A DNA stretch of 64,000 bases from Candidatus Aminicenantes bacterium. Its GTDB lineage: Bacteria > Acidobacteriota > Aminicenantia > Aminicenantales > UBA4085. The notes below the pieces were generated by a model. That model did no database searches, was not told the DNA's origin, and was given only the letters and a program-made list of their open reading frames with translations. Below, in pieces: positions 46,005-64,000 of the stretch. The position numbers were made by a program, and so were the translations under genes. The stretch covers positions 6,366 to 70,365 of the forward strand of contig CAWKFB010000007.1 of the NCBI GenBank assembly GCA_963848835.1, given 5' to 3'. Within the stretch, counting starts at the first letter, position 1. Each line of letters opens with the position of its first letter.

Positions 46005-46066
46005 TGTCCCCCTAGCAAGCCTGAAAAGCCTTTTTCTTATCCATTTTTTTGGTATATTGGAGGACG

Positions 46067-48884: not shown

Positions 48885-49370
48885 TTACATTTTATATTTG
48901 CCGAATTCCTCGGGGGAGAGGGCCTCGAACCACTTGCGGAGGTTCTCCGAGCTCTCCAGGCTGTCCTCGAGCTTCATGCCGTGGGCCTTGTGGACGACTT
49001 CCTCTTCGACAAAGATGGGGGAGGCCATCCGTAAAGCCAGGGCGATGGCGTCGGAGGGGCGGGAATCGATGACGACCTCGCGGTCCAGATGGCGGCAATG
49101 GATGGCGGCGTAGAATGTATTGTTGCGGACGTCGGTGACGACGATGCGGTCCACGGCGATATCGAGGCCGTTGAAGACGTTGCGGAGGAGGTCGTGCGTC
49201 ATCGGCCGGGGCGTCGTGACCCGCTCGATGGTCAGGGCGATGGCGTTGGCCTCGTAGGTCCCGATCCAGATGGGAAGGATCCGTCCCCCGGCCGCGTCCT
49301 CGAGGAGGACGATGGGCATCTTCGAGATCGGGTCGACGACTAGGCCCTTGAGTTTCATCTCGATTTCCAT
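48885..49370 (-). CDS. bifunctional nuclease (BFN/DUF151) family protein
   Basis: MEIEMKLKGLVVDPISKMPIVLLEDAAGGRILPIWIGTYEANAIAL..RPMTHDLL.. matches DUF151. Confidence 0.7.
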   Translation of the reverse strand: MEIEMKLKGLVVDPISKMPIVLLEDAAGGRILPIWIGTYEANAIALTIERVTTPRPMTHDLLRNVFNGLDIAVDRIVVTDVRNNTFYAAIHCRHLDREVVIDSRPSDAIALALRMASPIFVEEEVVHKAHGMKLEDSLESSENLRKWFEALSPEEFGKYKM

Positions 49371-49731
49371 CGGGAGCGCTCCTTCCTGATGATCCAATAT
49401 AGGGCGGCAACGGCTTCTTGTCAATTTAATGAATAAAGCACAAGAATCCAAAAATATGGATGAAATTCAAATAAATGGATAGTAAAGGGGCGATTTGCTT
49501 TTGTAACTAATTGAAAACAAACACAATTATCCATTTATTCGGCCCCCTGGGGGTTGGCATGTTTTTTGCGATAAAAGGGGTGATATCCAAAGGCAATTAT
49601 TATGTTTTATCCGATCATACAAGGAGGTGAGAATAGAAGGAATTTCGTCCAAGGACGAAGGTCCGGGACGGAGGCCGCAAAGGATTCCGTTCCGGGGGGT
49701 TTTGAATTGGAGAAAAGGAGAGTTCAATCGA

Positions 49732-52700
49732 ATGAGCATTCTTAAGAAAAGCGTTTTCACGCTGCTCTCTCTCGCCTTGATCGCGTCCTTCGCGGTGGCC
49801 CAGACGCCGACCGGAAGGATCACGGGCAAGGTGACGGATGAGCAGGGCGTGTCCCTGCCGGGCGTGACGGTCGAAGCGACCAGCCCGCGCCTGGTGGGCA
49901 CCGCCTCCTCGATCACGGACGAGTCCGGAACATACCGGCTCCTCGCTCTCCCGTCGGGGACCTACACCATCACGTTCTCGATGCCGGGCTTCAAGCAGAA
50001 GATCCGTACGGGCATCATCCTGCAGCTCGAGCAGACCCTGAGCCTGAATGAGACCCTCACTCAGAGCGCGGTTGCCGAAGAGATCACGGTCGTCGGGCAG
50101 AGCCCGCTGATCGACGTCAAATCGACGACCAAGGGCACGACGATGTCCAAGGACGTCTTCATGCAGCTGCCCCGCAGCCGGAACTTCCAGGGACTGCTGT
50201 CCACGGTTCCAGGCGTCCAGACCGAAGGCATGCAGGGCGGATTGTCCGTCGACGGCGCCTCCGGAACAGAGAACGTCTACTATGTTGACGGGACGAACGT
50301 TTCCAACATCCACAACGGCCTCGTGGTGCAGGGCGGCGTGGTCATGGAGCAGCTCGAGGAAGTCAAGGTTACGGCTTCCGGGTACAGCGCCGAGTTCGGC
50401 GGCTCCATGGGCGGCGTGATCAACGTCATCACCCGGTCCGGCGGAAACGAGTTCCACGGCGACATCTTCGGGTACTACAACAACAATAGTCTCCTGTTCC
50501 AGGGGAAAGACCGCGACTATCTGCGGATCAACCCCTACTGGGAGAACCCGCTGGACGCCGCGGATATCGAGTACGTCAACGACGACGACATCTATTACAA
50601 CGGCGGTAAAGACCGCAACAACTACCAGAGGTTCGAAGGCGTCTTCAACCTGGGCGGGTACGTCATGAAGGACAAGCTGTGGTTCTTCGCCTCCTTCAAC
50701 CCGACCTACGGCAGCACGACCGCCAATCGCTGGTTCATGACCGACCCGGTCAATCTGGCCGCGGCCAAGGTTCCGGGCGACACGAGGCAAGACCCGCAGC
50801 AGGGCCGCCAGACCTACGAGTTCGCCAGCAAGAACCTCTATCTCTACTGGCAGGCCAAGCTGACCGCGCAGCCGTTCAAGGGCATGCGCGTGTCCCTGTC
50901 CGGCGTCAGCAACTTCTCCAGGTCCTTCGGCGGTGAAATCCCCTCGATCGCCGGGACGTCCGCCAAGAACTATCCGTGGAACAGGGGCTGGGATAACACC
51001 ATTCTTCCCGGCAAGGAATCCCGCTGGGGCTATCCCAACATTTCCGGTAACCTGACCGCGGACTGGACCGTCAGCAACAACTTCCTGGTCAGCCTGCGCG
51101 GCGGCTACCAGAGGACCAACACGACCGGCCAGGAAATGGTCATGCCGACCACCCGGTACGCGTTCTCCGGCTCGAACACCTCGACCACGACGTACCCCGA
51201 GATCCCGGACAGCCTCCGGCACTCCTCGGGCTGGACGAACTGGTCGGCCTCGATGTACGAGTACAAGAAGTGGATCTACGGCCGGGCGAGCGTCAACCTC
51301 GACATGACCTATTACTTCAGCATCGCCGGCGAGCACGCGATCAAGTTCGGCGCCCAGTTCATCCGGCCCTTTGAGGATGTCGACGCCTCCTCGGCCCATC
51401 CTTACGTCACCGTGGTCTGGGGCAACTACTACCAGTGGCCCGACGGCCAGAAAGTCCAGGGCAAGTACGGCAACTACCAGATCCGGGGAAGCTTCGTTTC
51501 GCCCTACGGCAACTTCTGGGCGATTCACAGCGACAACTGGGCCCTTTACCTCCAGGATTCCTGGACGATCGGCGACCGCCTGACCCTGAACCTCGGCGTC
51601 CGGACCGAGAGCGAATATGTCCCGGCCATGTCCACGGACACCACGCTCCCCGGTTACTCGGCCAAGCCGATCCAGTTCGGTTTCGACCAGAAGCTGGCCC
51701 CCCGCCTGGGCGTCATCTATGACGTCTTCGGCGACTCCAGCCTGAAGGTCTTCGGCAGCTTCGGGATCTACTACGACGTCATGAAGCTGTACATGGCGGA
51801 AGGCGCGTACGGCGGGTTCAAGTGGTGGACGAGCTACTTCACGCTCGACGACTACGACTTCACCAAGATCGCGGCCAATGGCGATGTCACCGACAAGGCC
51901 AGCCAGACCGCCACGAACACCTACTTCGGCTCCCGCAACTGGCGGACCGGCTCGTTCGAAGCCACCGAGCCCAACATGAAGCCCGTCGCCCAGTCCGAGG
52001 TCTCCTTCGGCGCGGAAAAGAAGCTGACCGAGGAGATCTCCCTCGGCGCCCGGTTCGTCTACAAGCACCTCATCCGCACGATCGAGGACATCGGCTATTA
52101 CGACGCCGACTTCAACGAGCAGTATTTCATCGGCAACCCCGCCGAAGGCAAGGGCCTCCCGGTTTCGCAGGGCGGCATCTTCTCCGACAACTTCTGGCCC
52201 GCCCCCAAGCCGAAACGGGAATACTACGCCCTCAACCTGTCGGTGGAAAAGCGTTTCTCCAACAACTGGCAGGGCGGGTTCAACTACACCTGGAGCCAGA
52301 TGACGGGGAACTACGGCGGTCTGTCGTCCTCGGACGAGAGCGGCCGGAACTCGCCGAACGTCGAGCGGTATTGGGACATGTGGTTCGAGCGCTACGACAT
52401 CCACGGGAAAGCCTATGACGGCATCCTCCCCTCGGACCGCACCCACTACTTCAAAGCGTTCGGGTCCTACGCCTTCCCGTTCGGGCTGACGGTCGGATTC
52501 GTCGGCTACGCCCGGAGCGGCCTGCCGCGGAACACGAACCTGAGCTTCAACGACATGCAGGTGTTCCCGGACGGCTACAACAACCTCGACCAGCGCACTC
52601 CGTTCACGATGTGGGCGGACCTGTATCTTGAGTACAACCTCAGGATCGCCAAGCGCTACACGGTCAACCTCAACGCGACGATCAGCAACGTCACCAACAC

Positions 52701-52911
52701 GTCCACGATTCAGGCTTACTACGACCGGTATAACTACTCCATGCTCCGCCTGACGGACGATGAGCTCCTCGCTCAGGCCACGAACTATGTGGATTGGAAG
52801 CAGCTGGTTGCCACGAAGATCACCGTCAACCCGCTTGACCCGCGCTATGGCATGTGGACCAGCCGGTTCGGCTCCTGGTCCTGGCGCCTGGGCGCCCGGT
52901 TCTCCTTCTAA
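49732..52911 (+). CDS. TonB-dependent receptor-like outer-membrane protein with N-terminal CarboxypepD_reg domain
   Basis: Signal peptide; GRITGKVTDEQGVSLPGVTVEA..GTYRLLALPSGTYTITF (carboxypeptidase-regulatory-like); plug region; ~900 aa beta-barrel; C-terminal ..GARFSF. Confidence 0.8.
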   Translation: MSILKKSVFTLLSLALIASFAVAQTPTGRITGKVTDEQGVSLPGVTVEATSPRLVGTASSITDESGTYRLLALPSGTYTITFSMPGFKQKIRTGIILQLEQTLSLNETLTQSAVAEEITVVGQSPLIDVKSTTKGTTMSKDVFMQLPRSRNFQGLLSTVPGVQTEGMQGGLSVDGASGTENVYYVDGTNVSNIHNGLVVQGGVVMEQLEEVKVTASGYSAEFGGSMGGVINVITRSGGNEFHGDIFGYYNNNSLLFQGKDRDYLRINPYWENPLDAADIEYVNDDDIYYNGGKDRNNYQRFEGVFNLGGYVMKDKLWFFASFNPTYGSTTANRWFMTDPVNLAAAKVPGDTRQDPQQGRQTYEFASKNLYLYWQAKLTAQPFKGMRVSLSGVSNFSRSFGGEIPSIAGTSAKNYPWNRGWDNTILPGKESRWGYPNISGNLTADWTVSNNFLVSLRGGYQRTNTTGQEMVMPTTRYAFSGSNTSTTTYPEIPDSLRHSSGWTNWSASMYEYKKWIYGRASVNLDMTYYFSIAGEHAIKFGAQFIRPFEDVDASSAHPYVTVVWGNYYQWPDGQKVQGKYGNYQIRGSFVSPYGNFWAIHSDNWALYLQDSWTIGDRLTLNLGVRTESEYVPAMSTDTTLPGYSAKPIQFGFDQKLAPRLGVIYDVFGDSSLKVFGSFGIYYDVMKLYMAEGAYGGFKWWTSYFTLDDYDFTKIAANGDVTDKASQTATNTYFGSRNWRTGSFEATEPNMKPVAQSEVSFGAEKKLTEEISLGARFVYKHLIRTIEDIGYYDADFNEQYFIGNPAEGKGLPVSQGGIFSDNFWPAPKPKREYYALNLSVEKRFSNNWQGGFNYTWSQMTGNYGGLSSSDESGRNSPNVERYWDMWFERYDIHGKAYDGILPSDRTHYFKAFGSYAFPFGLTVGFVGYARSGLPRNTNLSFNDMQVFPDGYNNLDQRTPFTMWADLYLEYNLRIAKRYTVNLNATISNVTNTSTIQAYYDRYNYSMLRLTDDELLAQATNYVDWKQLVATKITVNPLDPRYGMWTSRFGSWSWRLGARFSF

Positions 52912-52967: not shown

Positions 52968-53006
52968 CCGGCCCGGCGCCCTTCGGGGCGCCGGGCCATT
53001 TTTTTA
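52968..53006 (+). terminator. rho-independent terminator after the TonB-dependent receptor gene
   Basis: CCGGCCCGGCGCCCTTCGGGGCGCCGGGCC followed by ATTTTTTT. Confidence 0.8.
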
Positions 53007-54126
53007 ATCGGGGGACGTAGCACTCATTCCCCGATTTCGTATAACAAAAATCGTCAGATGGCGGCTTTTATTTCTCTTTATCGGGGGACGTAGCACTTAT
53101 TCCCCAATTTTGTTCTAACAATAAACGTCAGATTGGGGGCTTTTATTTCTCGGGATCGAGGCCCTGGAAAACGGGCGATGTCAAAATCTCCATCCTTCTT
53201 TTCCTTCCCGCCGACTTTGGCGCGAGAGACCGCCCTGCCAGCCTTTCGAGATTTTCGATGAATTCCTTTGATCCAAGCGGCCGTCCTGTTCGCGCGTGGA
53301 GCTTGATCTCTCTTTCGAGTTCAGGTGAATCTTCCGCCTGGAGAAAGAGGGACCAATCCGGAACATCAATGAACTCGCGAATATCCGTCAGCCGGAGAAG
53401 TGATTTCCGCGTTCCGGATACGTGCTCCGCGGCGCTCGACCAGGGATAGTCTTCAGCCTTTTTAACGAGGCCGGCTTTGACCGGATTTCGCTCCGTATAT
53501 CTAACGCAATTGAATAGATAGGCGGCATCCATTGGAAAGGAATGATAACGGCCATCCCAGAGATTGCCGGTCCAGCTCTCCCTGGCGTTGATGATCAGAG
53601 TGTATTTCCTCTTTATTTCCGCAATACATTTGGCGAAGCTTGATTCCGTCTTGGGGATTGCGTTCAGGTGGAAGTGGTTGTTCATAAGGCAATACGCTAG
53701 GAACACGACACCGAATTTCTCTCCGCATTCATCTAAAAGCTTGAGAAAGAGCATTTTATCCGAGTCGAGGATGAAGACGTCGGCTTTATGATTCCCCCGA
53801 TTATAGATGTGAAACGGAACACCTGGGAAAACGACTCTCGCAATTCTGGGCATCGGGTTCATCTCCAGATGTCGATATTGAGCTCAATAAAACGAACGTG
53901 TCCCGGAATGTCAATTTCTCACTCTGGAGACGGAAACAATGGCTATTCATCGAAGGAATATATTGGGCTTCGGTTAGCCCATAATAGATTGATATAAAAT
54001 GAGTTACCTGTGTTAAGCAAAGAATCAGAATTCAACACTCTGGCGGGGTAAAAAGAATCCGAGCAGTGGTTATTACGGCGAGAAGTGATTGACGAAATTT
54101 GCTTACGAAATCGGGGAATAAGTGCT
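53007..54126 (-). mobile_element. REP-RAYT unit: IS200/IS605-like Y1 (HuH) REP-associated tyrosine transposase flanked by REP hairpins
   Basis: Two direct ~72 bp units carry the REP ATCGGGGGACGTAGCACT(C/T)ATTCCCC (53007-53035, 53080-53106). An inverted copy ATCGGGGAATAAGTGCTACGTCCCCCGAT lies at 54098-54126. The block is AT-rich compared with its surroundings. Confidence 0.75.
53143..53862 (-). CDS. REP-associated tyrosine transposase (RAYT, Y1 HuH transposase IS200-like)
   Basis: FHIYNRGNHKADVF..LAYCLMNNHFHLNAIP (HuH motif), catalytic Tyr region ..RYHSF..; 239 aa. Confidence 0.8.
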   Translation of the reverse strand: MNPMPRIARVVFPGVPFHIYNRGNHKADVFILDSDKMLFLKLLDECGEKFGVVFLAYCLMNNHFHLNAIPKTESSFAKCIAEIKRKYTLIINARESWTGNLWDGRYHSFPMDAAYLFNCVRYTERNPVKAGLVKKAEDYPWSSAAEHVSGTRKSLLRLTDIREFIDVPDWSLFLQAEDSPELEREIKLHARTGRPLGSKEFIENLERLAGRSLAPKSAGRKRRMEILTSPVFQGLDPEK

Positions 54127-54137
54127 ACGTCCCCCGA

Positions 54138-56402
54138 TTATTTCTTAATAAGACGCGCGAGCTCGGCGCGGGCGCCGGCGATCTTTTCTTCCGGCTCGCC
54201 CTGCGGCGCCTGGAGGTACTGCTCGAGGCAGCGGATCGCGTCGGCGGTCTGCCCCTTCTCCCGGTAGGCGAGGGCCAGGTTGTACAGCGCGTCGGGATTG
54301 GGCCCCCCGGCGAGGATGCGGTTGAAGCACTCGATGGATTTGTCGAAATTCCGGGTCATCCCGTAGGCGATCCCGAGCTGGCGGAGGAAGCCGATCTCCT
54401 TTGGATAGTCCCGGGAAAGCCTTTCCAGGACCCCGATCGCCTCCTCGAGCCGTCCGCTCGTGGCGAGATTTCCCGCGTAAGCGGTCCGAAGGAACTTGTT
54501 CTCCGGCTCGGCCGCCAATCCCTCCTCAAAATAGGCGCTCGCTTCGGCCTTTTTCCCCGTGTTGTCCAGGATGACCGCGACGGCCGTCAGGGCGTCGATC
54601 GACTTCGGGTTTCGTTGGAGCGCCTCGCTCATCGTCCCGAACGCTTCCTGCGTCCGTCCCTCGACGAGATACGTGTAGCCGAGCCGCAGCAGCAGCGTCT
54701 CGTTCCCCGGGATGCGCTCCAAGCCGAGCTTGAGCGTCGCCACCGCGGCGTCCATCTTCTTCTCCCGGGCCTGGACCAGGGCCAGGCTGACATACGAGGA
54801 CGCGGAAAACGGCCGGAGGCCGACCATCCTTTCATATAGGGCGGCCGCCGTGGCGAGATCGCCTCGGAATTCCGCGTTTTCGGCGTCCTGGTACATTTTC
54901 AGCTCGTCGCGCTTGTCCTTGGGATCGGGCTCGAGGGCCGAAGCTCCGCTCGCGCCCGCCTCCCCGGCTCCCTTATCCGAGAAGCCGACGTATCCGAGCG
55001 AGCGGAGCCGGCTCTCTTCCTCGGCGGTCAGCGTCCTCTTCCCTGAGGCGGCGCCGGGGGCGAGGCTGTCCTTGACCGTCCGGTCGAGCCCGTCGCGCAT
55101 CTCCCGGACGGTCCGCGCCTCCCCGACGATGCGGTTGTCCCGCTCGCCCGGGTCGCGGCCGAGGTCGTACAGCTCCTCCTTGGGGGCGCGGATGTATTTC
55201 CAGTCCTTGACGATGAGCCCGCTGAGCGGAGCCCAGCCGAAATTCTCTCTCGGGTAGTACGTCTCGATATAAGTATCGAGATCGGCCCGCTCCTTTTTCC
55301 GGATGTAGGGGAGAAGGCTCACGCCTTGCGTTCCCTCCGGAGCGGGGCGGCCCATCAGATCGAGAACGGTCGGCATCAGGTCGATCAGCCGGACCCGGGG
55401 CGCGACGACGGCCCCCGCCGGCAAATGCCCCTCGGCCGCCATGATGAGCGGCACGCGGAGCGTCTCGTCGTAGAGGAAGACGCCGTGCCCCCATTCGCCT
55501 TTGTCGCCCAAGCCCTCGCCGTGGTCGCCGGCCACGACGACCACGGTCCGCCCGAGGAGACCGCGGTCGCGGAGCTTGGCCATGACCCGGCCGAAGACGA
55601 AGTCCATGTACGCGATCTCTCCGTCGTACGGCCGGCCGGAGAATTCCTCGCTGTACGGCGAGGGCGGGTTGTAGGGGATGTGGGGATCGAAGAAATGGAC
55701 CCAGCCGAAGAACGGTTCGGCCGGGTTGGCGTCCATCCAGTCCGAAAAGAGGCCGTAGACCTGTTCGGCCCGCCGCTCGGCGTTCGCCGCCTTGAACGGC
55801 GATCCTTCCTGGTAGTTGTCGTCGTAGTGGTCGAAACCTTGGGCCAGCCCGAAGCGCGAATCCACCGAGAACGAGGCGACGAAGGCCGCCGTGGCGTAGC
55901 CGTCGGCCTTCAGGACCTCGGCCAACGTCGTCCGGTCCGCCGCAAGCTCATACGCGCCGTTATTATGGACGCCGGTCGCGACCGGGTTCTGCCCGGTCAT
56001 GATCGAGGCGTGGCTCGGGAGCGTCAGGGGGACCGGGGCGTAGGCGTTGGAAAAGCGCACGCCGGACGCGGCCAGAGCGTCGAGATTGGGCGTCTTGACT
56101 CCCGCCGCCCCGTAGCATCCCAGATGGTCGGCCCGGGTCGTGTCGAGGGTGATGAGCAGGACGTTGAGGCGCTCCCCGCGGCTGACGGCCGGGCCCCCGC
56201 GGAGAAGGAAGAAAGCCGCGATCGCGGCCAGGATCAGGACGGCCGCGATGCCTAGGGAAGCTGTTCTTCGCGGCGGGCGCTTTCCGGCCGGCGCGGGAGC
56301 GGGGGCCGGTCCGGACGCGCGGACGGCCGGCTTGGGCCCATCGGGGCGGGGCCCCTCCGTTCGGTCCGGCCGGCGCGGCTTGTGGTGCTTGCGTTTCGCC
56401 AC
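54138..56402 (-). CDS. sulfatase-family hydrolase (alkaline-phosphatase superfamily) with C-terminal TPR repeats, membrane-anchored
   Basis: TM helix; LNVLLITLDTTRADHLGCYG.., SHASIMTG, GDHGEGLGDKGEWGHG; C-terminal ~300 aa of TPR. Confidence 0.8.
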   Translation of the reverse strand: MAKRKHHKPRRPDRTEGPRPDGPKPAVRASGPAPAPAPAGKRPPRRTASLGIAAVLILAAIAAFFLLRGGPAVSRGERLNVLLITLDTTRADHLGCYGAAGVKTPNLDALAASGVRFSNAYAPVPLTLPSHASIMTGQNPVATGVHNNGAYELAADRTTLAEVLKADGYATAAFVASFSVDSRFGLAQGFDHYDDNYQEGSPFKAANAERRAEQVYGLFSDWMDANPAEPFFGWVHFFDPHIPYNPPSPYSEEFSGRPYDGEIAYMDFVFGRVMAKLRDRGLLGRTVVVVAGDHGEGLGDKGEWGHGVFLYDETLRVPLIMAAEGHLPAGAVVAPRVRLIDLMPTVLDLMGRPAPEGTQGVSLLPYIRKKERADLDTYIETYYPRENFGWAPLSGLIVKDWKYIRAPKEELYDLGRDPGERDNRIVGEARTVREMRDGLDRTVKDSLAPGAASGKRTLTAEEESRLRSLGYVGFSDKGAGEAGASGASALEPDPKDKRDELKMYQDAENAEFRGDLATAAALYERMVGLRPFSASSYVSLALVQAREKKMDAAVATLKLGLERIPGNETLLLRLGYTYLVEGRTQEAFGTMSEALQRNPKSIDALTAVAVILDNTGKKAEASAYFEEGLAAEPENKFLRTAYAGNLATSGRLEEAIGVLERLSRDYPKEIGFLRQLGIAYGMTRNFDKSIECFNRILAGGPNPDALYNLALAYREKGQTADAIRCLEQYLQAPQGEPEEKIAGARAELARLIKK

Positions 56403-56412
56403 GGGGCGGCGG

Positions 56413-57378
56413 TCACTTCTTGACGGCGTTCAGGATGTTTTGGGCCAGCGCGGCCCGCGGCCCCTCCGGCTCGAGGGTCAGGAACTTCTCGAGGCTCTCG
56501 ATGGCCTTGGGGTTGTCGGCTTTGTTGAGGTAGACATAGCCGAGCTTGAGGTACGGGTCCGGCCAATCCGGCTTGATCTGGGCGGCCAAAGCGAAATACT
56601 TGAGGGCGTCGTCGAACGCCTGGTTCGAGAAGTAAATCTCGCCGACATTGTAGGCGAGGATCTCGTCCTTCGGGGAGTTCTCGATGGACTGGCGGAAAAG
56701 GTCCTGGGCTTCGGTCATCTTGCCCTGCTTCAGGTAGCAGTTGCCGATCCCGGCCAGGGCCTTGGCCGTCATCTCCCTGCCCAGGGTCACGTCGAGCTTG
56801 GCCTGTTCCACCACGGCCTTGTACGTCTCGATGGCTTTCTCGAAGTCTCCCTTCTCCCGGTAGCAGTCGCCGATGCTCAGCTGGACCTGGTAGAGGTTCG
56901 GGTTTTTGCTCAGGAATTCCTGGTAGGCCGCGATGGCTTCGTCGAACTTCTGTTCCTTGAAGAGCGCGTTGCCCTTCTCGAGGATGGCGAAGGTGGCTTC
57001 GTCGGCAACGACGCCCGCGCCCTTGGTGATCTTCTGGAGATGGACCACGACCTTCGGGTTCACCGAGAGCTGGCTGACGTACAGCGTCTTGTCCTGGGGC
57101 ATGTAGCCCGTGATCACGGCGGTCATGGTCCAGTTGCCCGTGCCGAGCCCAAGGAAGGACCATTCGCCCTTCTTGTTCGACGTCGTCTCGAACTTGAGGC
57201 TGGGGTTGTCCGCGAACTGCAGGGTCAGCTTGACGCCCTCGAGCGGCTTCTCTTCGAGGTCGTAGACGATCCCGCCGAGCCGTCCGACGCCCCGTCCGGC
57301 CTGGCCGAAGGCCAGGCCTCCGGCGAGGAGAAGGATCGCCGCCAGAGCCGCTATGGTCTTCCGGGAGTGATGTTTCAT
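56413..57378 (-). CDS. secreted CarboxypepD_reg-like domain + TPR repeat protein
   Basis: Signal peptide; GIVYDLEEKPLEGVKLTLQ.. beta-sandwich, then TPR-like AYQEFLSKNPN.. repeats. Paralog of the 63038..63958 protein. Confidence 0.65.
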   Translation of the reverse strand: MKHHSRKTIAALAAILLLAGGLAFGQAGRGVGRLGGIVYDLEEKPLEGVKLTLQFADNPSLKFETTSNKKGEWSFLGLGTGNWTMTAVITGYMPQDKTLYVSQLSVNPKVVVHLQKITKGAGVVADEATFAILEKGNALFKEQKFDEAIAAYQEFLSKNPNLYQVQLSIGDCYREKGDFEKAIETYKAVVEQAKLDVTLGREMTAKALAGIGNCYLKQGKMTEAQDLFRQSIENSPKDEILAYNVGEIYFSNQAFDDALKYFALAAQIKPDWPDPYLKLGYVYLNKADNPKAIESLEKFLTLEPEGPRAALAQNILNAVKK

Positions 57379-57530
57379 TTCACGCCTCCACGAGAGTTAT
57401 GATGCAACTTATGTGCCAAAAATGCACACGATAAATGCGCCTGAATTCCGGCAAATCGGTATTTTAGCACGTTCCGCGCGGTAAAGGAAATTGCGTCCGG
57501 CCGGTTCACGAATGAGGTAGATACAAATTC

Positions 57531-58547
57531 CTAAAAGCTCTCTCGGCGGAGGGATTGCCCCGGAGCGAACATTGGGAGGGGGGCCCGGCTTCCGGGGGAA
57601 CCGCAGAGGTTCCCGTGAGCGAGGGGGCAATCCCGAAGCTTCTTCCGCTTCGAGACCGTGCCCTTGTCCGCCGAGTTCGCCAGGGTCACGACGAGAACGC
57701 GCGACTCGGGAGCGGGGGCGAACTCGAGGTCGATGACGTAGAATTCTCCGCGCAGGCCCTCGACCTTCTCTTCGGTCAGGGAGAGCGGATACGCGCTCGA
57801 GCTTTCCTGGGTCTTGGCTCCGGACGCGTCTTCGCCGATCAGCGTGACCGTCAGCGTCGTCCGCAGCTCCTTGTTGTCCCCGGAGGTCATCCAGATCTTG
57901 GCATAGGGAACCCGGAGGCGCACGCCGAGCCCCCCGGCCGGGCTCTTCTTCTCGACCGCCAGGTCGAATTCCAGGAGCGAAGCCCCCGCCTCGACCTGGG
58001 GCTTCCACGCGAGCTGCGTCTTCATGATCGTCGTGAGCTGGGCCGGGCTGGACGGATCGAGCCGGTAGTTCCCGGTCCAATCCGGATCGACGAAGACGAT
58101 GGGAAAGAACCCGTAATACCAAACCTCCGTCGGGATGCCGTAGAACGTCACCCCCCGCGGGTAGACCTCGCGCTCGGAAGGCGGGCCGAGGAGGATGTAG
58201 ATCCGGCCGCGGTCCTGGAGCCAGCCCGGCTCGCCGCCGTCGGTGAAGAGGTGATTGGCCTCGTCGATGCGCTGGAAGTACTGCGTCTTGAACTCGTTCT
58301 CCTCGGTGTCCGGGTCGGGGTCCCGTTTCTTCCAGAACTCCTCCATGAAGGCCGGCCGCTCGGCCGACGGCAGATTCAGGAAGATCCGGCGCTCCTCGGC
58401 GGTGACGAGATAGCGGACCTTGGAGATGAATTCGCGGCTCTCGGGCTCCATGCGGCGGATGAGACGGTACGAGCCGCAGGCCGAGGACAGGACGGCCAGA
58501 AGGAGGGCGAGGGCGGGGACGAGCCTGGGCGCGCGGTCCAGGGTCAT
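57531..58547 (-). CDS. GWxTD domain-containing lipoprotein
   Basis: Lipobox LSSAC; ..EFWKKRDPDPDTEENEF..GWLQDRGRIYILLGPP matches the GWxTD signature. The C-terminal about 30 codons are encoded by an intergenic-repeat copy. Confidence 0.65.
   Translation of the reverse strand: MTLDRAPRLVPALALLLAVLSSACGSYRLIRRMEPESREFISKVRYLVTAEERRIFLNLPSAERPAFMEEFWKKRDPDPDTEENEFKTQYFQRIDEANHLFTDGGEPGWLQDRGRIYILLGPPSEREVYPRGVTFYGIPTEVWYYGFFPIVFVDPDWTGNYRLDPSSPAQLTTIMKTQLAWKPQVEAGASLLEFDLAVEKKSPAGGLGVRLRVPYAKIWMTSGDNKELRTTLTVTLIGEDASGAKTQESSSAYPLSLTEEKVEGLRGEFYVIDLEFAPAPESRVLVVTLANSADKGTVSKRKKLRDCPLAHGNLCGSPGSRAPLPMFAPGQSLRRESF
57547..57640. repeat. copy of the intergenic repeat family embedded in the 3' end of a CDS
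   Basis: GGAGGGATTGCCCC GGAGCGAAC .. GGGGGAACCGCAGAGGTTCCC GTGAGCGA GGGGGCAATCCCGAAGC. Confidence 0.5.
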
Positions 58548-60628
58548 TTCTTATCCTTCAGGGACTTGACCGCGGCCCGGATCGTTTCCTGCTTCGGATC
58601 GAGCTCGAGGGAGCGCTCGTAGGCGATCAGGGCCTCCGGAACGTTCCCCAGCCGGACGTAGCATTCCCCGATGTTGTTCAGGACGATGATGTTCGTCCCG
58701 AAGTGAGCCAGGTAATCCTTGTAGAACGTGACCGCTTCTCCGTATTCACCCAGGCCGCGGGAGGCGTCGCCCAGGAGCTGGAGGAAGTCGTATTTCTGCT
58801 CGTCGCTCATGAACGCCCGGGCGATCGAGCGGACCTCGGCGTATTCTTTCAGCGAATAGAGAAGCTGGGCGTAGTCCAGCGCGTAGGGAGCCGATCCCGG
58901 GTTGCCCCGGTGGGCCGATTCGAGGAGCGGGCGGGCCTGGGCGGCGTCCCCGAGCTGGAAATACTGCTTGCCCAGGGCGTGGCGGATCGACGGATCGTCG
59001 GAGGCCGGCGAGGGCGTGGAAACGATCCAGGGCCGGGGGAAGTTCGGGATCGAAGTGATGCCGAATTGGATCTTGGCCCCGACGCGCTCGGTCCCGTCGG
59101 CGGCCTGAACGGAAATCTGGAGGAGGTAGTTGGCGATCCCGTATCCGGCCAGGGAGAAGTCCTCGCTGAAGTCCGTTCCGTGGACGGCGTCCTTGAAGGT
59201 CCGGGTTCGGGTGGCGACGGGCAGGGCGTTCTTGAAGATCGTGAATTCGATCTTGCCGTTTTCGCGCAGGTCCGCAGGGGGGTTCTGGACCTGGAAAAAG
59301 GCGTTCATGACGTCGCCGGGGAGGAAGATTCCGTTCGGGGACGGCACGTATTGGACGTTTCCGACGAGGAAGGCCTTGTTCGTCCCGCGATACTTGGATT
59401 CCCGGTCCGTCCGGTAGGCCAGGATCGGCTGGCTCATGGAGAAGGCGTTCCGGGCGGGGATGAGGATGTCGGCCTCGAGCGTCGTGAACTCCTTGGAGAC
59501 CGTGTTCTTCCAGAGGATGTTGACCTTGTAGCTGCCCGGGACGAGGGGGAAGAGGTCCTGGAAGCTGACCGGCAGGGGCCGGACGCGGCTGAATTGCGCC
59601 TGATCGAAGCGGAGGGGGAACGTCCGGTCGAACTGGTAGACGGTCCGGCCCTTGAGGTCGCTGATCTTGGCGTTGATCAGGACCTCGGCCCGGTACCGGT
59701 CTTCGTTCTGCTCGAACGTCAGCCGCGACGGCTCGATGGCGTAATGGACGAAGGAGAGCCCCTGGGCGTCCTGGAAGACGTCGATCATGGCCGCGCTCTG
59801 GATGTAGTTGGCGCTGTAGTCGACCTCGATGATGTCCTTGTAGCGGAGGAGCTTCTCGGCGTAGTCGTCCTTGATCTTTTCGAGGGGCGCGGCCGGAATC
59901 CGCTGCCGGAGGAGGATCTCCGAGGCCAGAGAGGGCGTGAGGTTGAACTGCGTCTCGCCGGGGATGAGCGAGATCGACGCCTGGGCGACCGTGGTGGCGA
60001 TGTTGGCCAGCACGGCGTAGGCGGCCTCGATGTTGGCCACGTCTCCGGAATAATGAACCATCAGCTGGGAGGGTCCGTCGGCGACCGGAGAGTAGAGCCT
60101 GTATTCGGCGTTGATGTCGCGCTTGTAGAACATCAGGGTGAACGTTCCGGGAAGGTTCATCTCGGCCATGCCGTCGTAGAACCAGACGATGGTCGGCCGG
60201 AGCTCGTAGTCGTTCTCGTACTTCTCGACCGATTTCGGCTCGCCCAGGATGATGTGGATCCGGCCCATGTCCGTCCGCCAGCCGGCGCCGGGGACGTCCC
60301 GTCCGAACCATTTGTTGGCGTATTCGATCCTCTTGTAATGCTCGGTCTTGAACTCGTTTTCCTCCGTCGACAGGTCGGGGTCGCGCTGTTTCCAGAAGGC
60401 GTCGATGAAGATGTTCCGCTCCCGGTCGGACCCGAGCTGGAGGAAAACCTCCCGCTCTTTGGGGGTGATGATATAGACGACTTCCTCGTCGAGCCATTTC
60501 CGGAATTGAGGGGGGAGGTTCTTGGACGTCAGCTTCTTCTGCGGGGCGGCGGCCGCGGCGATCGACCCCAGCAGGAGGATGATGATGAGGCCTAAAACGT
60601 TCTTTTTCACCGACTTATTATAGGTCAT
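58544..60628 (-). CDS. GWxTD domain protein with C-terminal TPR repeats, membrane-anchored
   Basis: TM VLGLIIILLLGSIAAAAA; ..AFWKQRDPDLSTEENEF..GWRTDMGRIHIILGEP; C-terminal TPR (..YVRLGNVPEALIAYERSLELDP). Its stop overlaps the downstream GWxTD gene start. Confidence 0.7.
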   Translation of the reverse strand: MTYNKSVKKNVLGLIIILLLGSIAAAAAPQKKLTSKNLPPQFRKWLDEEVVYIITPKEREVFLQLGSDRERNIFIDAFWKQRDPDLSTEENEFKTEHYKRIEYANKWFGRDVPGAGWRTDMGRIHIILGEPKSVEKYENDYELRPTIVWFYDGMAEMNLPGTFTLMFYKRDINAEYRLYSPVADGPSQLMVHYSGDVANIEAAYAVLANIATTVAQASISLIPGETQFNLTPSLASEILLRQRIPAAPLEKIKDDYAEKLLRYKDIIEVDYSANYIQSAAMIDVFQDAQGLSFVHYAIEPSRLTFEQNEDRYRAEVLINAKISDLKGRTVYQFDRTFPLRFDQAQFSRVRPLPVSFQDLFPLVPGSYKVNILWKNTVSKEFTTLEADILIPARNAFSMSQPILAYRTDRESKYRGTNKAFLVGNVQYVPSPNGIFLPGDVMNAFFQVQNPPADLRENGKIEFTIFKNALPVATRTRTFKDAVHGTDFSEDFSLAGYGIANYLLQISVQAADGTERVGAKIQFGITSIPNFPRPWIVSTPSPASDDPSIRHALGKQYFQLGDAAQARPLLESAHRGNPGSAPYALDYAQLLYSLKEYAEVRSIARAFMSDEQKYDFLQLLGDASRGLGEYGEAVTFYKDYLAHFGTNIIVLNNIGECYVRLGNVPEALIAYERSLELDPKQETIRAAVKSLKDKK

Positions 60629-60727
60629 GTTGGTCTCCCGGTCAAACCGCACGGGGGCCTGGGGACATGATTCCATGTCCCCCGGAGCCCGTTGGTATAA
60701 CTCCCGCCGGAAGGCGAACGGTTGCGT

Positions 60728-62029
60728 CTAAAAAAGGGACATCTGTCCCCCGCCGGGGGCATCGGAGGCGCCGTCGGGATCGAACAGCCGGATCGTCCCG
60801 TATTCGCCGTCGTGGCCCGGGGAGATCTTCACCAGCCCTTTGCGCATCCGCTCGATCCCGTCGGCCACCCGCTCCGGAGAGATCCGGCGGAGGTCGGCGG
60901 CCGGAGTTTCCGTCAGGACGGTCTGCTCGTCGCCGAACTCGTGGATGAACCGGAAATAAAGCTCCCAGACGCCCTGGCTCTCGGGCGTCTTCCCGCACGC
61001 TTCGGCGATGACCTCGTTGAGGGGGATGAGGCGGCGGAAGGGTGCGCGCGGGGCGGCGTCCCGGACCTCGTCCGCGGTCCGGTCGGCCAGCTCCTCGACC
61101 CGGTGGGCCACGCCGATCGTGAGCTTCTTTCCGCAGGACGGGCAGATGTCTCCGAGCCGGAGGGACTCGCGCGGATCGAGGACGACCGCGCACTTACGGT
61201 GTCCGTCCCAGTGATATTTGCCTTCTTCGGGAAAGAACTCGACCGTGCCGAGGAAGCGGGCCGGGTCCCGGCTCTTGATCGCGTCGATCATCCCCTTGTA
61301 GCTGAAGTCCGCGTCGAAGATGTTGGCTTCGCGCCCGATCTTGGCGGGGGAGTGGGCGTCCGAGTTCGAGATCAGGGCGAAGCGGTCGAGGGCGGACAGC
61401 CGCCAGTTCATGGCCGGGTCGGACGACAGGCCCGTCTCCAGGGCGAAGAGGAACGGCGTCATCTCCTCGAAGCACTCCTCGATGGCGTCGAACCCGGAAT
61501 TCGCCCCGAACAGGGAAAACCAGGGGGTCCAGATGTGGGCGGGAATGACCGCGCACTGGGGACAGAGATCGGCGACCAGGCGGACGAATCCTTTGACGTC
61601 CATGCCCAGGATCGGCCGTCCGTCCGAACGGAGGTTGCCCAGCCCGGAGAGACGAGTGTTGATCTTATCCACCGACTCGAAATCCGGGGCCAGGAGGAGA
61701 AGATGAACCTTCCGGACGCGGCCCTTCTTCGAATAGATGAAGCTGATCTCGGTCGAAAGGACGAACGAGACGTCGTCGGGCCCCAGGGTGACGGACCGGA
61801 AGGGCTCCCAATCGGGCCGCTGGGGATTCCTCAGCCGGAAGAATCCGTTCCCCTTGGGCTCGAGCTTCTCCCGGGTCAGGAAGAACCATTCCGGGTGGGT
61901 GAAGTCGGCCGAGGCGAGCAGCGAGATGCCCTTGACCTTGCTCCAGTACGCCAGGGCGTCGAAGGTCATGTCCCGCGACGTGGCCCGTGAGAACTTCGAG
62001 TGGATGTGGAGGTCGGCGGTGTATTTCAT
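60728..62029 (-). CDS. endonuclease Q (EndoQ)-like PHP-domain protein with CxxC zinc finger
   Basis: MKYTADLHIHSKFSRATS, PAHIWTPWFSLFG, SNSDAHSPAKIGREANIF, GKYHWDGHRKC..ICPSCGKKL, C-terminal GHDGEYGTIRLF. As recalled, these parallel the archaeal/Bacillus EndoQ motifs. Confidence 0.65.
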   Translation of the reverse strand: MKYTADLHIHSKFSRATSRDMTFDALAYWSKVKGISLLASADFTHPEWFFLTREKLEPKGNGFFRLRNPQRPDWEPFRSVTLGPDDVSFVLSTEISFIYSKKGRVRKVHLLLLAPDFESVDKINTRLSGLGNLRSDGRPILGMDVKGFVRLVADLCPQCAVIPAHIWTPWFSLFGANSGFDAIEECFEEMTPFLFALETGLSSDPAMNWRLSALDRFALISNSDAHSPAKIGREANIFDADFSYKGMIDAIKSRDPARFLGTVEFFPEEGKYHWDGHRKCAVVLDPRESLRLGDICPSCGKKLTIGVAHRVEELADRTADEVRDAAPRAPFRRLIPLNEVIAEACGKTPESQGVWELYFRFIHEFGDEQTVLTETPAADLRRISPERVADGIERMRKGLVKISPGHDGEYGTIRLFDPDGASDAPGGGQMSLF

Positions 62030-62085
62030 GCGTCGCGTGGTCTCCGTATGTTTAGACCTTTTCGCGCCCCAATTCAAGTACAATC

Positions 62086-62925
62086 GGCGAGGGCGGTCTC
62101 GCTCGACGGGAAATCCTGACGCTCTGCCTGGCGCTCGAGGCTCCTAGGCGCTGCGCCCTCCGCGCCCCGATGGTCTCCTCGCCGTCCCTTTGTATACGCC
62201 TCAGCGTCTGCAATATGGTCACGTGCTCAAAGCTCGGGATCGCCCCACGCTCACGATGGAATGCTCACCTCCGGGAGCCCTCGGCTCGCCGCCAGATCAG
62301 GCAAGACGCGTCCCCGATGTTCGCTTATCTGCGATCGCTCTCGCAAGCTCCCGCCGACGGCCACGCCGCTGGCCGATTCGCCTGACGTCACTCTGACGAG
62401 GGTCCGCAGGGAAAGCTCCGCGCATCATCCGAGTCGGCCGCACGGTTCAGGCCCGCAGCGAACAGGAGCCGCCGAACCTGTTTCTTCGGCAGGGGAACCG
62501 GTATCGGCGGTTCCCCCCGAAGCGGAACCCCCCTCCACTCTGCACGATCGTCGGTCGTTGTCTGGCCGAAGGAAGCAAGCCGTGTGGCGGGCGATTCGAA
62601 AAAATTCTCTGTAGGGAGGCGAGGTGCGGTTCGAGCGACATCGGGAAATCCCAGCTCTGCGTCCCGAGCTCCGACGGGAAGCCCCGCGCAGCGGGGCTTC
62701 GCCAAATGAAGTGACGCGATTTTTTCTTCGACCATCATATCTGGAAAGATCAAACGGGCGAAGGGATCGCCCGTGAGCGAACATCAGGAGGGGGGGCCCC
62801 GCATTAATTCGGGGGGGAACCAGAAGGGTTCCAACGTGAGCGATGGGCGATTCCGAAGCCCTCCTAGGAGCTCGAGTGACAGGCAGAGCGTCAGGATTTC
62901 CCGTCGAGCGAGGGGCCGCCCTCGC
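62086..62925. mobile_element. transposase-less element bounded by ~65 bp terminal inverted repeats (MITE-like), internally full of the intergenic repeat family
   Basis: 62100-62130 CGCTCGACGGGAAATCCTGACGCTCTGCCTG is the exact reverse complement of 62890-62920. Flanking TCGGCGAGGGCGG and CTCGAG..CTCCTAGG blocks extend the TIR to about 65 bp. No protein-like ORF inside. Confidence 0.55.
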
Positions 62926-63037
62926 CGAATTCCCTTTGATAATTGCCCCCATGTTGCTACAATGAAGGCGCCGGGAGCAGGCCCGGAGAGAGGCGATCCT
63001 GGCATAAAAGTTGCATCTGAATCATCCGGAGGCGGTA

Positions 63038-63958
63038 ATGAAAAGATCCCTCATATTCGTCCTCAGCCTGGTCCTTATCGCCGGCGCCCTGTCCGCCCAA
63101 GCCTACCGGGGCGGCCGCGGCCGGCTGACCGGGCTGGTCATGGACCAGAAGGGCCAGCCCATCGAGGGCGTCACGGTCAAGCTCTTCGCCGTCAAGCACC
63201 AGGACGGTTTCTCGGTCCAGACCGGGCCGGATGGGAAGTGGGCCGCGACGATGCTGAGCGGCGGGGAATGGAACCTGGATTTCGAGAAATCGGGCTACGC
63301 CCCGTTCAGGACCGCGGTATCGGTCAAGGAGCTCGAGCGGCTGCCCGATATCAAGGTCGTCCTGCAGAAGGTCGAGGGGCTCGTCCTGACCGATGAGCTC
63401 AAGAAGCTCCTCGGCGACGCCAACCAGCTCTTCGATCAGAAGAACTTCGCCGGCGCGCTCGAGGGATACAACGCCATCCTGGCCAAGTACCCCGACGCGT
63501 ACATCATCTGGCAGAACGTCGGCAACTCCTACTTCGCCCAGGAGCAATATGACAAGGCGGAGGAGGCCTACCTCAAGGTCCTGGCCAAGAGCCCGGCCGA
63601 CACCACGGCCATCGTGGCCGTCGGCAACTGCTATTTCAACCGGAACCAGACCGAAAAGGCCCTCGAATGGTACGGCAAGGTCGACTACACCAAGATCACG
63701 GACCCGACCGTGCTCTTCAATATCGGGCTGAATTTCTCGAACCTGACCAAGTACGATGAAGCCTTGAAGTATTTCAAGCAGTCCGTCGAGGTCCAGAAGA
63801 CCTTCGAGGACGGTTTTTACCAGATGGGGCTGACCTATGTCTCGATGCAGAAGACGACCGAAGCCATCGCGGTCTTCGAGCAGTTCCTGAAGCAGTTCCC
63901 GGATTCCCAGAAGACCGACCAGGTCAAGGGCTTCCTCGACTACCTGAAGAAAAAATGA
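63038..63958 (+). CDS. secreted CarboxypepD_reg-like domain + TPR repeat protein (paralog of 56413..57378)
   Basis: Signal peptide MKRSLIFVLSLVLIAGALSAQA; GLVMDQKGQPIEGVTVKLF..; TPR (NVGNSYFAQEQYDKAEEAYLKVLAKSP..). Confidence 0.65.
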   Translation: MKRSLIFVLSLVLIAGALSAQAYRGGRGRLTGLVMDQKGQPIEGVTVKLFAVKHQDGFSVQTGPDGKWAATMLSGGEWNLDFEKSGYAPFRTAVSVKELERLPDIKVVLQKVEGLVLTDELKKLLGDANQLFDQKNFAGALEGYNAILAKYPDAYIIWQNVGNSYFAQEQYDKAEEAYLKVLAKSPADTTAIVAVGNCYFNRNQTEKALEWYGKVDYTKITDPTVLFNIGLNFSNLTKYDEALKYFKQSVEVQKTFEDGFYQMGLTYVSMQKTTEAIAVFEQFLKQFPDSQKTDQVKGFLDYLKKK

Positions 63959-64000
63959 CATCGCCGCGGCCCCGGGCATGGCTCCGGCCGGTCGGAGCGG

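Follow-up and report, generated by a model that had tools for sequence, protein, structure and literature searches.

A conserved, uncharacterised cell-envelope gene module with GWxTD proteins and a TonB-dependent transporter in Aminicenantia

What could a tight array of genes for exported tetratricopeptide-repeat (TPR), GWxTD and carboxypeptidase regulatory-like proteins be doing in an uncultured bacterium? The array lies in a stretch of 64,000 nucleotides from a Candidatus Aminicenantes bacterium of the Acidobacteriota (assembly GCA_963848835.1, contig CAWKFB010000007.1, positions 6,366 to 70,365), which is called the window here. An earlier note, made from the sequence alone, had suggested that the products form a periplasmic or outer-membrane assembly or modification machine, for example for exopolysaccharide or a surface polymer. 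We found that the array, together with a convergent gene for an outer-membrane transporter, forms an uncharacterised gene module of the cell envelope that is conserved throughout an uncultured class of Acidobacteriota. As the best overall explanation, we propose an envelope-spanning transport module built on a TonB-dependent transporter (TBDT) of the Oar/SusC class, with uptake as the preferred direction, and we give this explanation a probability of about 0.4. The module is a good lead, and its mechanism is inferential.

The open reading frames (ORFs) were taken from a six-frame listing with translation, and their domains were assigned using Pfam and NCBIfam. All six genes described in the earlier note were present within a few codons of where it had placed them, and its domain calls were reproduced. 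Four of them form the array, all on the minus strand. In order of transcription, they encode a secreted GWxTD-TPR protein (58544-60628), a GWxTD lipoprotein (57531-58547, an ORF of 338 amino acids, aa), a secreted CPD-TPR protein with a CarboxypepD_reg (CPD) beta-sandwich and TPRs by Pfam (56413-57378, 321 aa), and an inner-membrane-anchored sulfatase-fold-TPR protein (54138-56402, 754 aa; Pfam Sulfatase 2e-50, Phosphodiest 3.6e-14, and TPRs). Thus, three of the four proteins carry TPR arrays, just as had been noted. The NCBIfam matches of these arrays to PrsT, PgaA and PilW were weak and far below the family cutoffs. The GWxTD-TPR ORF is listed as 58544-60676 (710 aa). Because its homologs begin at M17, we kept the start at 60628, as in the earlier note. 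The one strong sigma-70-like promoter match, at 60645-60617, was rejected; it spans the start codon and coding sequence (its TATAAT encodes Y-N), and the scan may not cover the promoter type of the host lineage.

The genes had been described as packed with overlapping or near-overlapping stop and start codons. This holds for two junctions, namely a 4-bp overlap between the GWxTD-TPR and lipoprotein genes (58544-58547) and a 10-bp gap between the CPD-TPR and sulfatase-fold genes (56403-56412). However, the lipoprotein and CPD-TPR genes are separated by 152 bp containing a hairpin like those of repetitive extragenic palindromes (REP-like). The conserved part of the lipoprotein ends near 57633, and its last 32 codons (57531-57632) are a window-specific read-through into a REP-like hairpin; a 95% identical relative (P0121) has 306 aa and lacks the extension. 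The original stop codon seems to have been lost in the window.

Export signals were examined by comparing the N-termini of the window proteins with those of some 25-30 orthologs per family. The GWxTD lipoprotein has a lipobox (LSSAC, 58490-58476) that is kept in the orthologs. Both the GWxTD-TPR and CPD-TPR proteins have type-I signal peptides, also kept in the orthologs, and the signal peptide of the CPD-TPR protein has a conserved ..AQAGRG mature end. The sulfatase-fold protein begins with a K/R-rich cytoplasmic tail followed by one transmembrane helix (aa 50-67), a layout shared by its orthologs. In these proteins (window aa 1-49; orthologs in L001-L056), the tail before the helix spans 40-70 residues and is extremely rich in Lys and Arg (MSKKKRxxKKK...). 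The claim that every non-nuclease member of the operon carries an export signal or membrane anchor was therefore borne out. In addition, scans of the cluster proteins with Pfam and NCBIfam detected no OmpA_C, LysM, SPOR or other peptidoglycan-binding domain.

Is the array a real unit? A word-indexed search with the GWxTD-TPR protein found 2,595 relatives, the named ones from Candidatus Aminicenantes, and a genome scan using one genome per GTDB species found a relative in at least 574 species. The neighbourhood counts cover the best 79 loci of these at least 574 species. All 79 are Aminicenantia-like, with 43-55% identity to the window GWxTD-TPR protein; their labels are mostly Aminicenantes, Aminicenantia, Saccharicenans or Acidobacteriota, and many are generic or evidently wrong labels of metagenome-assembled genomes. 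All relatives are metagenome-assembled or metagenomic, and the genes of the loci were called by simple ORF logic. Partners were counted using tblastn and domain-level phmmer with the window proteins, and the denominators are the loci with enough downstream sequence.

The GWxTD lipoprotein gene lies immediately downstream of the GWxTD-TPR gene in 49 of 71 loci, and the CPD-TPR gene is downstream in 49 of 64. A sulfatase-fold-TPR gene is found nearby, in either orientation, in 30 of 54. The most constant partner is a gene for a large outer-membrane protein with CPD, Plug and barrel domains, which is present in 41 of 45 loci and convergent to the operon; at least three of these four partners accompany the GWxTD-TPR gene in 40 of 45. 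The earlier note had named a lack of synteny in related genomes as grounds for refutation. Instead, the gene set was kept across the 79 Aminicenantia loci, and thus the cluster is real. Furthermore, recurrence in dozens of genomes, with proteins about 50% identical, puts the arrangement far outside what chance would give. The layout of L082 (55% identity) is exactly that of the window. In L001, a co-directional TBDT paralog (E 6e-28, ending in ..VRFQF), a sulfatase-fold-TPR gene (36% identity) and a GWxTD-TPR gene (30% identity) stand beside the main cluster, and this paralogous array is an independent repeat of the association between transporter, GWxTD and sulfatase-fold genes. GWxTD and CPD domains were both present in 34 of 36 full-length loci. 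Strict one-to-one pairing of the two domains was rejected, since their counts per 22-kb locus correlate weakly (r = 0.21).

The most constant partner was left out of the earlier note, whose unit ended at the sulfatase-fold gene. In the window it is the plus-strand gene at 49732-52911, outside the coordinates of that note, and it encodes a TBDT of the Oar/SusC class. The ORF is listed from 49627, and the likely start is M36 (MSILKK) at 49732. The protein has a signal peptide, a CarboxypepD_reg domain (PF13620, aa 65-144, 7.3e-18), a Plug domain (3e-7, 31.3 bits against a cutoff of 23.9, profile positions 10-107 of 107) and a barrel matched by OMP_b-brl_4 (1.2e-30, 107 bits against a cutoff of 30). 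The match to TonB_dep_Rec_b-barrel was weak (21.5 bits, below the cutoff of 27), and no solved TBDT was detectable in a sequence search with the window protein. The C-terminus (..ARFSF) is an aromatic beta-signal. Between the CPD domain and the Plug, at 50077-50100, lies the sequence EEITVVGQ, and the longer pattern EE[IV]TV[VI]GQSPL[IV]DV is conserved in 30 aligned orthologs. Judged by resemblance, EE[IV]TV[VI]GQ is TonB-box-like. Just past the stop codon of the gene, at 52970-52997, there is a strong bidirectional terminator-like hairpin of 12-13 G+C-rich pairs with a T-run on the plus strand.

Previous work helps to place this protein. The Oar subclass of TBDTs has a CPD extension followed by plug and barrel, and it also includes the importer SusC (PMC6434023). 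In a survey of over 30,000 TBDTs, two architectures dominate, and this CPD-extended form is one of them (PMC6434023). Oar of Myxococcus xanthus is necessary for secreting the protease PopC, and the CPD extension is dispensable for this secretion (PMC6434023). The window protein resembles the Oar/SusC transporters in its signal peptide, CarboxypepD_reg domain, TonB-box-like motif, Plug, large barrel and terminal aromatic residue. It differs from them in its gene linkage, which is to GWxTD, CPD-TPR and sulfatase-fold-TPR genes and not to SusD-like genes or a Ton cluster; such a set of partners has not been described for either Oar or SusC.

What does the GWxTD domain contribute? Both window paralogs were clearly assigned to the family. 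With TIGR04514 (cutoff 28), the lipoprotein scored 109.5 bits and the GWxTD-TPR protein 112.4 bits; with PF20094 (cutoff 26.9), they scored 51.2 and 53.4 bits, respectively. The eponymous motif is GWRTD at aa 116-120 of the GWxTD-TPR protein (60283-60269), in which FWKQRDP is found at 60397-60377. In the lipoprotein the motif is GWLQD, with Thr replaced by Gln; across the alignments, the G and W of the motif never vary. The domain of the lipoprotein is followed by about 120 further residues. In addition, the residues that are invariant across both window paralogs (E58, R71, R82, N91, R100, W79, W117 and W149) are rich in Trp and Arg.

An AlphaFold2 model of the GWxTD-TPR protein, made with an alignment of 90 sequences (mean pLDDT 87.7), comprises an alpha/beta GWxTD domain at about aa 35-265, two beta-sandwiches at about 278-540 and TPRs at 546-693. 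In Foldseek searches against the PDB, the full model matched TPR proteins and beta-sandwiches of the transglutaminase/alpha2-macroglobulin type. For the model of the domain by itself (pLDDT 76.8), the closest match to a solved structure had E 0.25, and none reached E <= 0.001. Weak matches of the domain to BamE/BLIP-like folds (E 2-5) were not taken as evidence, and the sequence profile of the GWxTD-TPR protein gave TPR matches alone against the PDB. The earlier note had stated that GWxTD proteins have no assigned function. We agree, because no publication on GWxTD, TIGR04514 or PF20094 and no solved structural relative was found. Likewise, literature searches on TBDTs and sulfatases of Aminicenantes or on carboxypeptidase regulatory-like domains found nothing relevant, save a paper on the Fibrobacter envelope proteome that offers an analogy for TPR scaffolds.

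The family is large. A profile search of 1.84 billion cluster representatives matched 10,815 clusters at 50% identity with E <= 1e-3 and 5,757 with E <= 1e-10. We hand-picked nine unusually long or multi-domain relatives from these matches and scanned them with Pfam. Five of the nine (P0268, P0279, P0286, P0318 and P0366) join a BlaR1-like Peptidase_M56 domain to one or two C-terminal GWxTD domains. P0279 also ends in TonB_C, and P0343 (1,402 aa) combines GWxTD with Big_7 and VWA. The two M56 fusions with source names are labelled Candidatus Acidoferrales. Because GWxTD takes the position of the BlaR1 sensor in these fusions, the architecture suggests that GWxTD serves for binding or sensing outside the cytoplasm. 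The likeness to BlaR1/MecR1 consists in this C-terminal fusion of relatives to Peptidase_M56 at the sensor position; the window proteins themselves lack M56, so that the comparison bears solely on the type of module that GWxTD is.

A split version of the module was found outside Aminicenantia. With the GWxTD domain of an Acidoferrales protein as the query, a search yielded small GWxTD proteins that stand alone, and the named relatives of this kind were labelled Acidiferrales, Bryobacteraceae, Terriglobales and Binatia (one Binatia record). Six Terriglobia-type loci extend downstream of the GWxTD gene (L083-L087 and L089, around coordinate 8001; L088 is around 4480). In all six, the order is a GWxTD protein (206-263 aa), an unannotated protein (about 260-360 aa) and a CarboxypepD_reg protein, although L084 and L089 have fragmented downstream gene calls and so a less tidy order. 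The middle protein shows homology to the beta-sandwich region of the window GWxTD-TPR protein (aa 295-464; phmmer 1e-6 and 3e-11 for L083 and L085). The third protein has an N-terminal CarboxypepD_reg domain and 452-571 aa where intact, and three of the four C-termini examined end in an outer-membrane beta-signal (..GGLSLQF, ..GGLSVQF and ..GGVSFQF). Judged by this beta-signal and by its length, the protein is probably an outer-membrane barrel. Thus, the ancient unit appears to consist of a GWxTD protein, a beta-sandwich and a CPD-bearing outer-membrane protein, with the TPR fusions and the additional lipoprotein, CPD-TPR and sulfatase-fold-TPR proteins appearing as elaborations seen in Aminicenantia. 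Meanwhile, a divergent pair of genes for a MacA-like adaptor and an ABC ATPase lies upstream of the GWxTD gene in seven of seven loci (L083-L089), and histidine kinase and sigma54 response regulator genes lie downstream in five Terriglobia-type loci. A Kdo hydroxylase gene often comes after the Terriglobia cluster, and a MacB-type permease gene is nearby in L089.

The enzyme of the array had been called a sulfatase or alkaline-phosphatase-fold protein, and its motifs do not support the label of sulfatase. Its best solved relatives are indeed S1 sulfatases (choline-sulfatase 7oz8 at 1.9e-32), and Pfam Sulfatase scored 172 bits. However, the formylglycine motif C/S-x-P-x-R is replaced by T-L-P-S-H in the window protein (aa 127-131, with Thr127; 56024-56010), which aligns to S-G-P-S-R of the sulfatase structure 7p24. 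The form T-x-P-[SA]-H was found in all 36 orthologs with a locatable motif (of 39), including a paralog group of 32-37% identity. In the window protein, the one compared at this site, V-A-S-F-S aligns to V-G-K-W-H of 7p24, so that the Lys/His pair is replaced by Ser/Ser. The GDHGE motif is retained (55529-55515). The NCBIfam equivalogs for arylsulfatase, choline-sulfatase and PehA gave 112-167 bits against cutoffs of 433-900, and weak NCBIfam matches to EptB and MCR cover the DHG region.

In NPP-type phosphodiesterases, the nucleophile sits in the motif T-x-P-[NS]-H-x-[ST]-[IL]-x-TG, and a Thr or Ser nucleophile with a DHG motif is also typical of LtaS, EptA and BcsG, which are polymer-modifying transferases. 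In view of the Thr motif, the lost Lys/His pair, the kept GDHGE, the low equivalog scores and the Phosphodiest match, the protein is probably a Thr-nucleophile phosphoesterase or phospho-group transferase and not a sulfatase. With S1 sulfatases it shares the fold, the best matches, the first metal-binding Asp and the DHG motif; unlike them, it has neither the C/S-x-P-x-R motif nor the GKWH Lys/His pair, and it carries a fused membrane anchor at the N-terminus and a TPR array of about 250 aa at the C-terminus. Thr127 stands in a T-x-P-S-H-x-S-I-x-TG context that resembles the NPP motif, and the DHG motif, the Phosphodiest match and the weak EptB and MCR matches are further likenesses to these phosphodiesterases and transferases. 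Overall, however, the window protein is closer to sulfatases than to either the NPP enzymes or LtaS, EptA and BcsG, and it has a single transmembrane segment in place of the lipid-access domain of 3-5 segments found in the latter three. Metabolic reconstructions of Aminicenantes that count the sulfatase-fold-TPR protein as a sulfatase are therefore probably wrong.

How might these proteins work together? That the five linked genes constitute a TBDT-centred transport module has, in our judgement, slightly better than an even chance. We infer complex formation, the binding role of GWxTD, the phosphoester chemistry and the direction of import as follows. The GWxTD-TPR protein, the GWxTD lipoprotein and the CPD-TPR protein would be periplasmic or membrane-tethered accessory proteins of the TBDT, held in a complex by their TPR arrays as a scaffold. 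The GWxTD domain would bind cargo or else a partner, for example the CPD domain; the TPR array of the sulfatase-fold protein would keep the enzyme in the complex. The TBDT would import a phosphoester-bearing macromolecule or fragment with energy from TonB, and the cargo would then be passed to the GWxTD and TPR proteins, to be de-esterified on the periplasmic side of the inner membrane. Two features favour import: in Aminicenantia the partner transporter is complete and plugged and has a TonB-box-like motif, and the enzyme faces the periplasm. That the module specifically takes up a phosphoester is possible but doubtful.

Several observations weigh against this explanation. The direction of transport is unreadable from TBDT sequences, in which importers and exporters are not yet distinguishable, and the namesake Oar exports a protein (PMC6434023). 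The annotated neighbourhoods of L001, L002 and L082 and the scanned window ORFs included no TonB or ExbBD genes. The TBDT gene is transcribed convergently and is not co-transcribed with the operon. Meanwhile, about 40% of loci lack a neighbouring sulfatase-fold gene and about 30% lack the GWxTD lipoprotein gene; being so often absent, the two genes are not obligatory in cis. The Thr-nucleophile assignment rests on alignment, and a hydrolase that processes nutrients in the periplasm would not usually have a long basic tail and an anchor in the inner membrane. In Terriglobia, the CPD-barrel protein (452-571 aa) is too short for a plugged TBDT of 22 strands, and the MacA-like adaptor and ABC ATPase beside the cluster hint at export.

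The last of these points leads to the first alternative, in which the same parts work outwards. An Oar-class TBDT would secrete a protein or polymer, possibly one of the TPR and GWxTD proteins of the operon itself; these proteins would then serve as adaptors, as chaperones or as the cargo, which the enzyme would modify beforehand. Oar shares the architecture of CPD, plug and barrel and is needed for protein secretion (PMC6434023), and secretion and assembly machines typically include exported proteins rich in TPRs. The case is strengthened by the MacAB-like neighbours in Terriglobia, since the efflux-type MacA-like and ABC ATPase genes occur in all seven loci, the GWxTD gene heads the triad in the six that extend downstream, and the cluster of L089 has the MacB-type permease near it. 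However, no MacAB-like genes were found in the annotated Aminicenantia neighbourhoods (L001, L002 and L082). In addition, Oar is the sole documented exporting TBDT, and PopC is not known to have a signal peptide, whereas the operon proteins all carry export signals or anchors. No candidate cargo with secretion-specific features was found. On balance, we regard export as unlikely, yet with enough in its favour to be kept in mind.

A second alternative is the surface-polymer machine suggested in the earlier note, in which the TPR proteins would be a scaffold like AlgK, PgaA or BcsC and the enzyme a transferase like BcsG, OpgB or LtaS. The weak, below-cutoff TPR matches to PrsT, PgaA and PilW, the Thr/Ser nucleophile with DHG that LtaS, EptA and BcsG use, and the anchoring of the enzyme at the periplasmic face of the inner membrane all agree with it. 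However, no glycosyltransferase, synthase, polymerase, flippase, Wza or polysaccharide porin was annotated within 10 kb in L001, L002 and L082 or in the scanned window ORFs, and the conserved outer-membrane partner is a plugged TBDT and not a polysaccharide porin. The enzyme has one transmembrane helix against 3-5 in lipid-donor transferases, and it best matches soluble S1 sulfatases; the TPR profiles also fell far short (PGA_TPR_OMP, 45 bits against a cutoff of 367; BcsC, 17 bits against 858). With no synthesis genes in the three annotated loci and a plugged transporter as the partner, we set the polymer machine aside as quite improbable.

Could the proteins instead guard the envelope? As a complex for integrity or signalling, GWxTD would sense peptidoglycan or lipopolysaccharide (LPS), and the TPR and CPD proteins would tether the outer membrane, as compared with YbgF/CpoB-Tol-Pal and PorE. 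The GWxTD domain at the BlaR1 sensor position, its fusions to TonB_C (P0279) and VWA (P0343), the Trp/Arg-rich residues conserved in both window paralogs and the histidine kinase and sigma54 regulator genes after the Terriglobia triad would all suit such a role. LptFG also adjoins the cluster in the window and its closest relatives, but this adjacency holds in three of 29 full-flank loci. Moreover, no peptidoglycan-binding domain was detected, and the idea leaves the conserved catalytic enzyme and the plugged TBDT unexplained. We consider it very unlikely. Finally, that the genes are unrelated neighbours whose apparent operon reflects conserved gene order among close relatives is hardly credible: the sulfatase-fold gene is flipped or missing in many loci, the TBDT gene is on the opposite strand and membership varies, but the association lasts at 43-55% protein identity despite rearrangements and recurs in paralogous modules within one locus and, split, in Terriglobia, whereas the true flanking genes (EndoQ, LptFG and BFN) are not conserved.

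The transport module that we prefer invites comparison with the SusC/SusD polysaccharide utilisation loci (PULs) of Bacteroidota. SusD is TPR-like, and PULs often carry sulfatases; the window likewise has a CPD-bearing TBDT near a lipoprotein, TPR-type exported proteins and a sulfatase-fold enzyme. However, no SusD/RagB match was found in the cluster proteins (Pfam and NCBIfam) or among the annotated neighbours of L001, L002 and L082. The window lipoprotein is a GWxTD protein of a predicted fold unrelated to SusD. The cluster also lacks glycoside hydrolases (L001, L002 and L082), as well as any hybrid two-component or extracytoplasmic function regulator. Furthermore, the window enzyme is anchored in the inner membrane and lacks the sulfatase catalytic motif.

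Thus, what is known here is the Oar/SusC-type class of TBDTs and the TPR and CPD domains, and the enzyme is a member of the sulfatase fold that has diverged and is probably neofunctionalised. What is new with respect to the searched literature is the conserved partnership of a TBDT with GWxTD, beta-sandwich, CPD-TPR and sulfatase-fold-TPR proteins. The linkage of TBDT and GWxTD genes offers a testable hypothesis on accessory machinery and a first functional handle on the GWxTD family. In a broader and speculative form, which we think unlikely, GWxTD and beta-sandwich proteins would be dedicated periplasmic partners of CPD-extended outer-membrane proteins, an Acidobacteriota-wide class of transport machine into which Aminicenantia would have recruited a Thr-nucleophile 'sulfatase' via TPRs. 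If this were true, the CPD extension of Oar/SusC-class transporters would be a docking site for GWxTD/TPR accessory complexes, and a role would be given to a family of more than 10,000 clusters at 50% identity. Terriglobia is a class with culturable strains, and the split module there makes genetic testing possible outside the uncultured Aminicenantia.

Some neighbours were judged to lie outside the module. The earlier note had placed an EndoQ-like PHP nuclease gene before the array, and this gene is present (60728-62083, minus strand, 451 aa). However, it is a bystander, being adjacent in just 17 of 79 loci in three positions or orientations, and it was rejected as a member. Its product is a predicted cytoplasmic DNA-repair nuclease; it matches the PfuEndoQ structures 5zb8 and 7k30 at 4.8e-48 over aa 22-433 and scores 185 bits with TIGR00375, below the cutoff of 326.6. 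On the other side of the cluster, a single plus-strand gene of 799 aa (46049-48448) encodes fused LptF and LptG LPS-export permeases, with TIGR04407 and TIGR04408 both above cutoff; the long form (about 800 aa) was also called in L001 and L082. A minus-strand gene with a bifunctional-nuclease (BFN) domain (48885-49451) lies between LptFG and the transporter, and the order is the same in L001 and L082. As candidate members, both were rejected on their counts in full-flank loci (three of 29 for LptFG and five of 29 for BFN).

Beyond the EndoQ-like gene lies a mirrored module. The paralogous CPD-TPR gene that had been reported on the far side of an inverted repeat was confirmed (63011-63958, plus strand, 315 aa, by Pfam; likely start M10 at 63038), and its product, CPD-TPR2, has 28% identity to that of 56413-57378. 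The gene opens a mirrored module of two genes, and in L003, L004, L013 and L082 a GWxTD gene comes after its ortholog. In L082, the divergent pair consists of CPD-TPR2 and a GWxTD gene of 318 aa joined by an ATGA overlap. In the window, an ORF starts with the same ATGA overlap at the CPD-TPR2 stop (63955-63958) and runs off the window end (63955-64000, plus strand). Because this overlap leads into a GWxTD gene in L082, the ORF probably encodes a third GWxTD protein, judged by synteny.

The window has also received insertions. The terminal inverted repeat (62098-62139 and 62871-62912, 42 nt, 95% complementary) was confirmed. It bounds a non-coding element of about 815 bp (62098-62912) with two REP-like palindromes, in the divergent intergenic region between the EndoQ-like and CPD-TPR2 genes. 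Since the orthologous region in L082 spans just 172 bp, the element looks like an insertion similar to a miniature inverted-repeat transposable element, outside the module. Meanwhile, a REP-associated tyrosine transposase gene of the IS200-like Y1 type (53143-53862, minus strand; Y1_Tnp 1.5e-9; REP_Tyr_transpos 5e-17, 62 bits, below the 80-bit cutoff) is inserted between the TBDT and sulfatase-fold genes, where L082 has about 200 bp, and it too is outside the module. Three copies of the REP-like palindrome GGAACC-N5-9-GGTTCC were counted where 0.15 would be expected (57597-57613, 62494-62514 and 62816-62832), all inside the region covered by the earlier note and one of them in the 32-codon read-through of the GWxTD lipoprotein ORF. 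The palindrome may be the substrate of the nearby tyrosine transposase.

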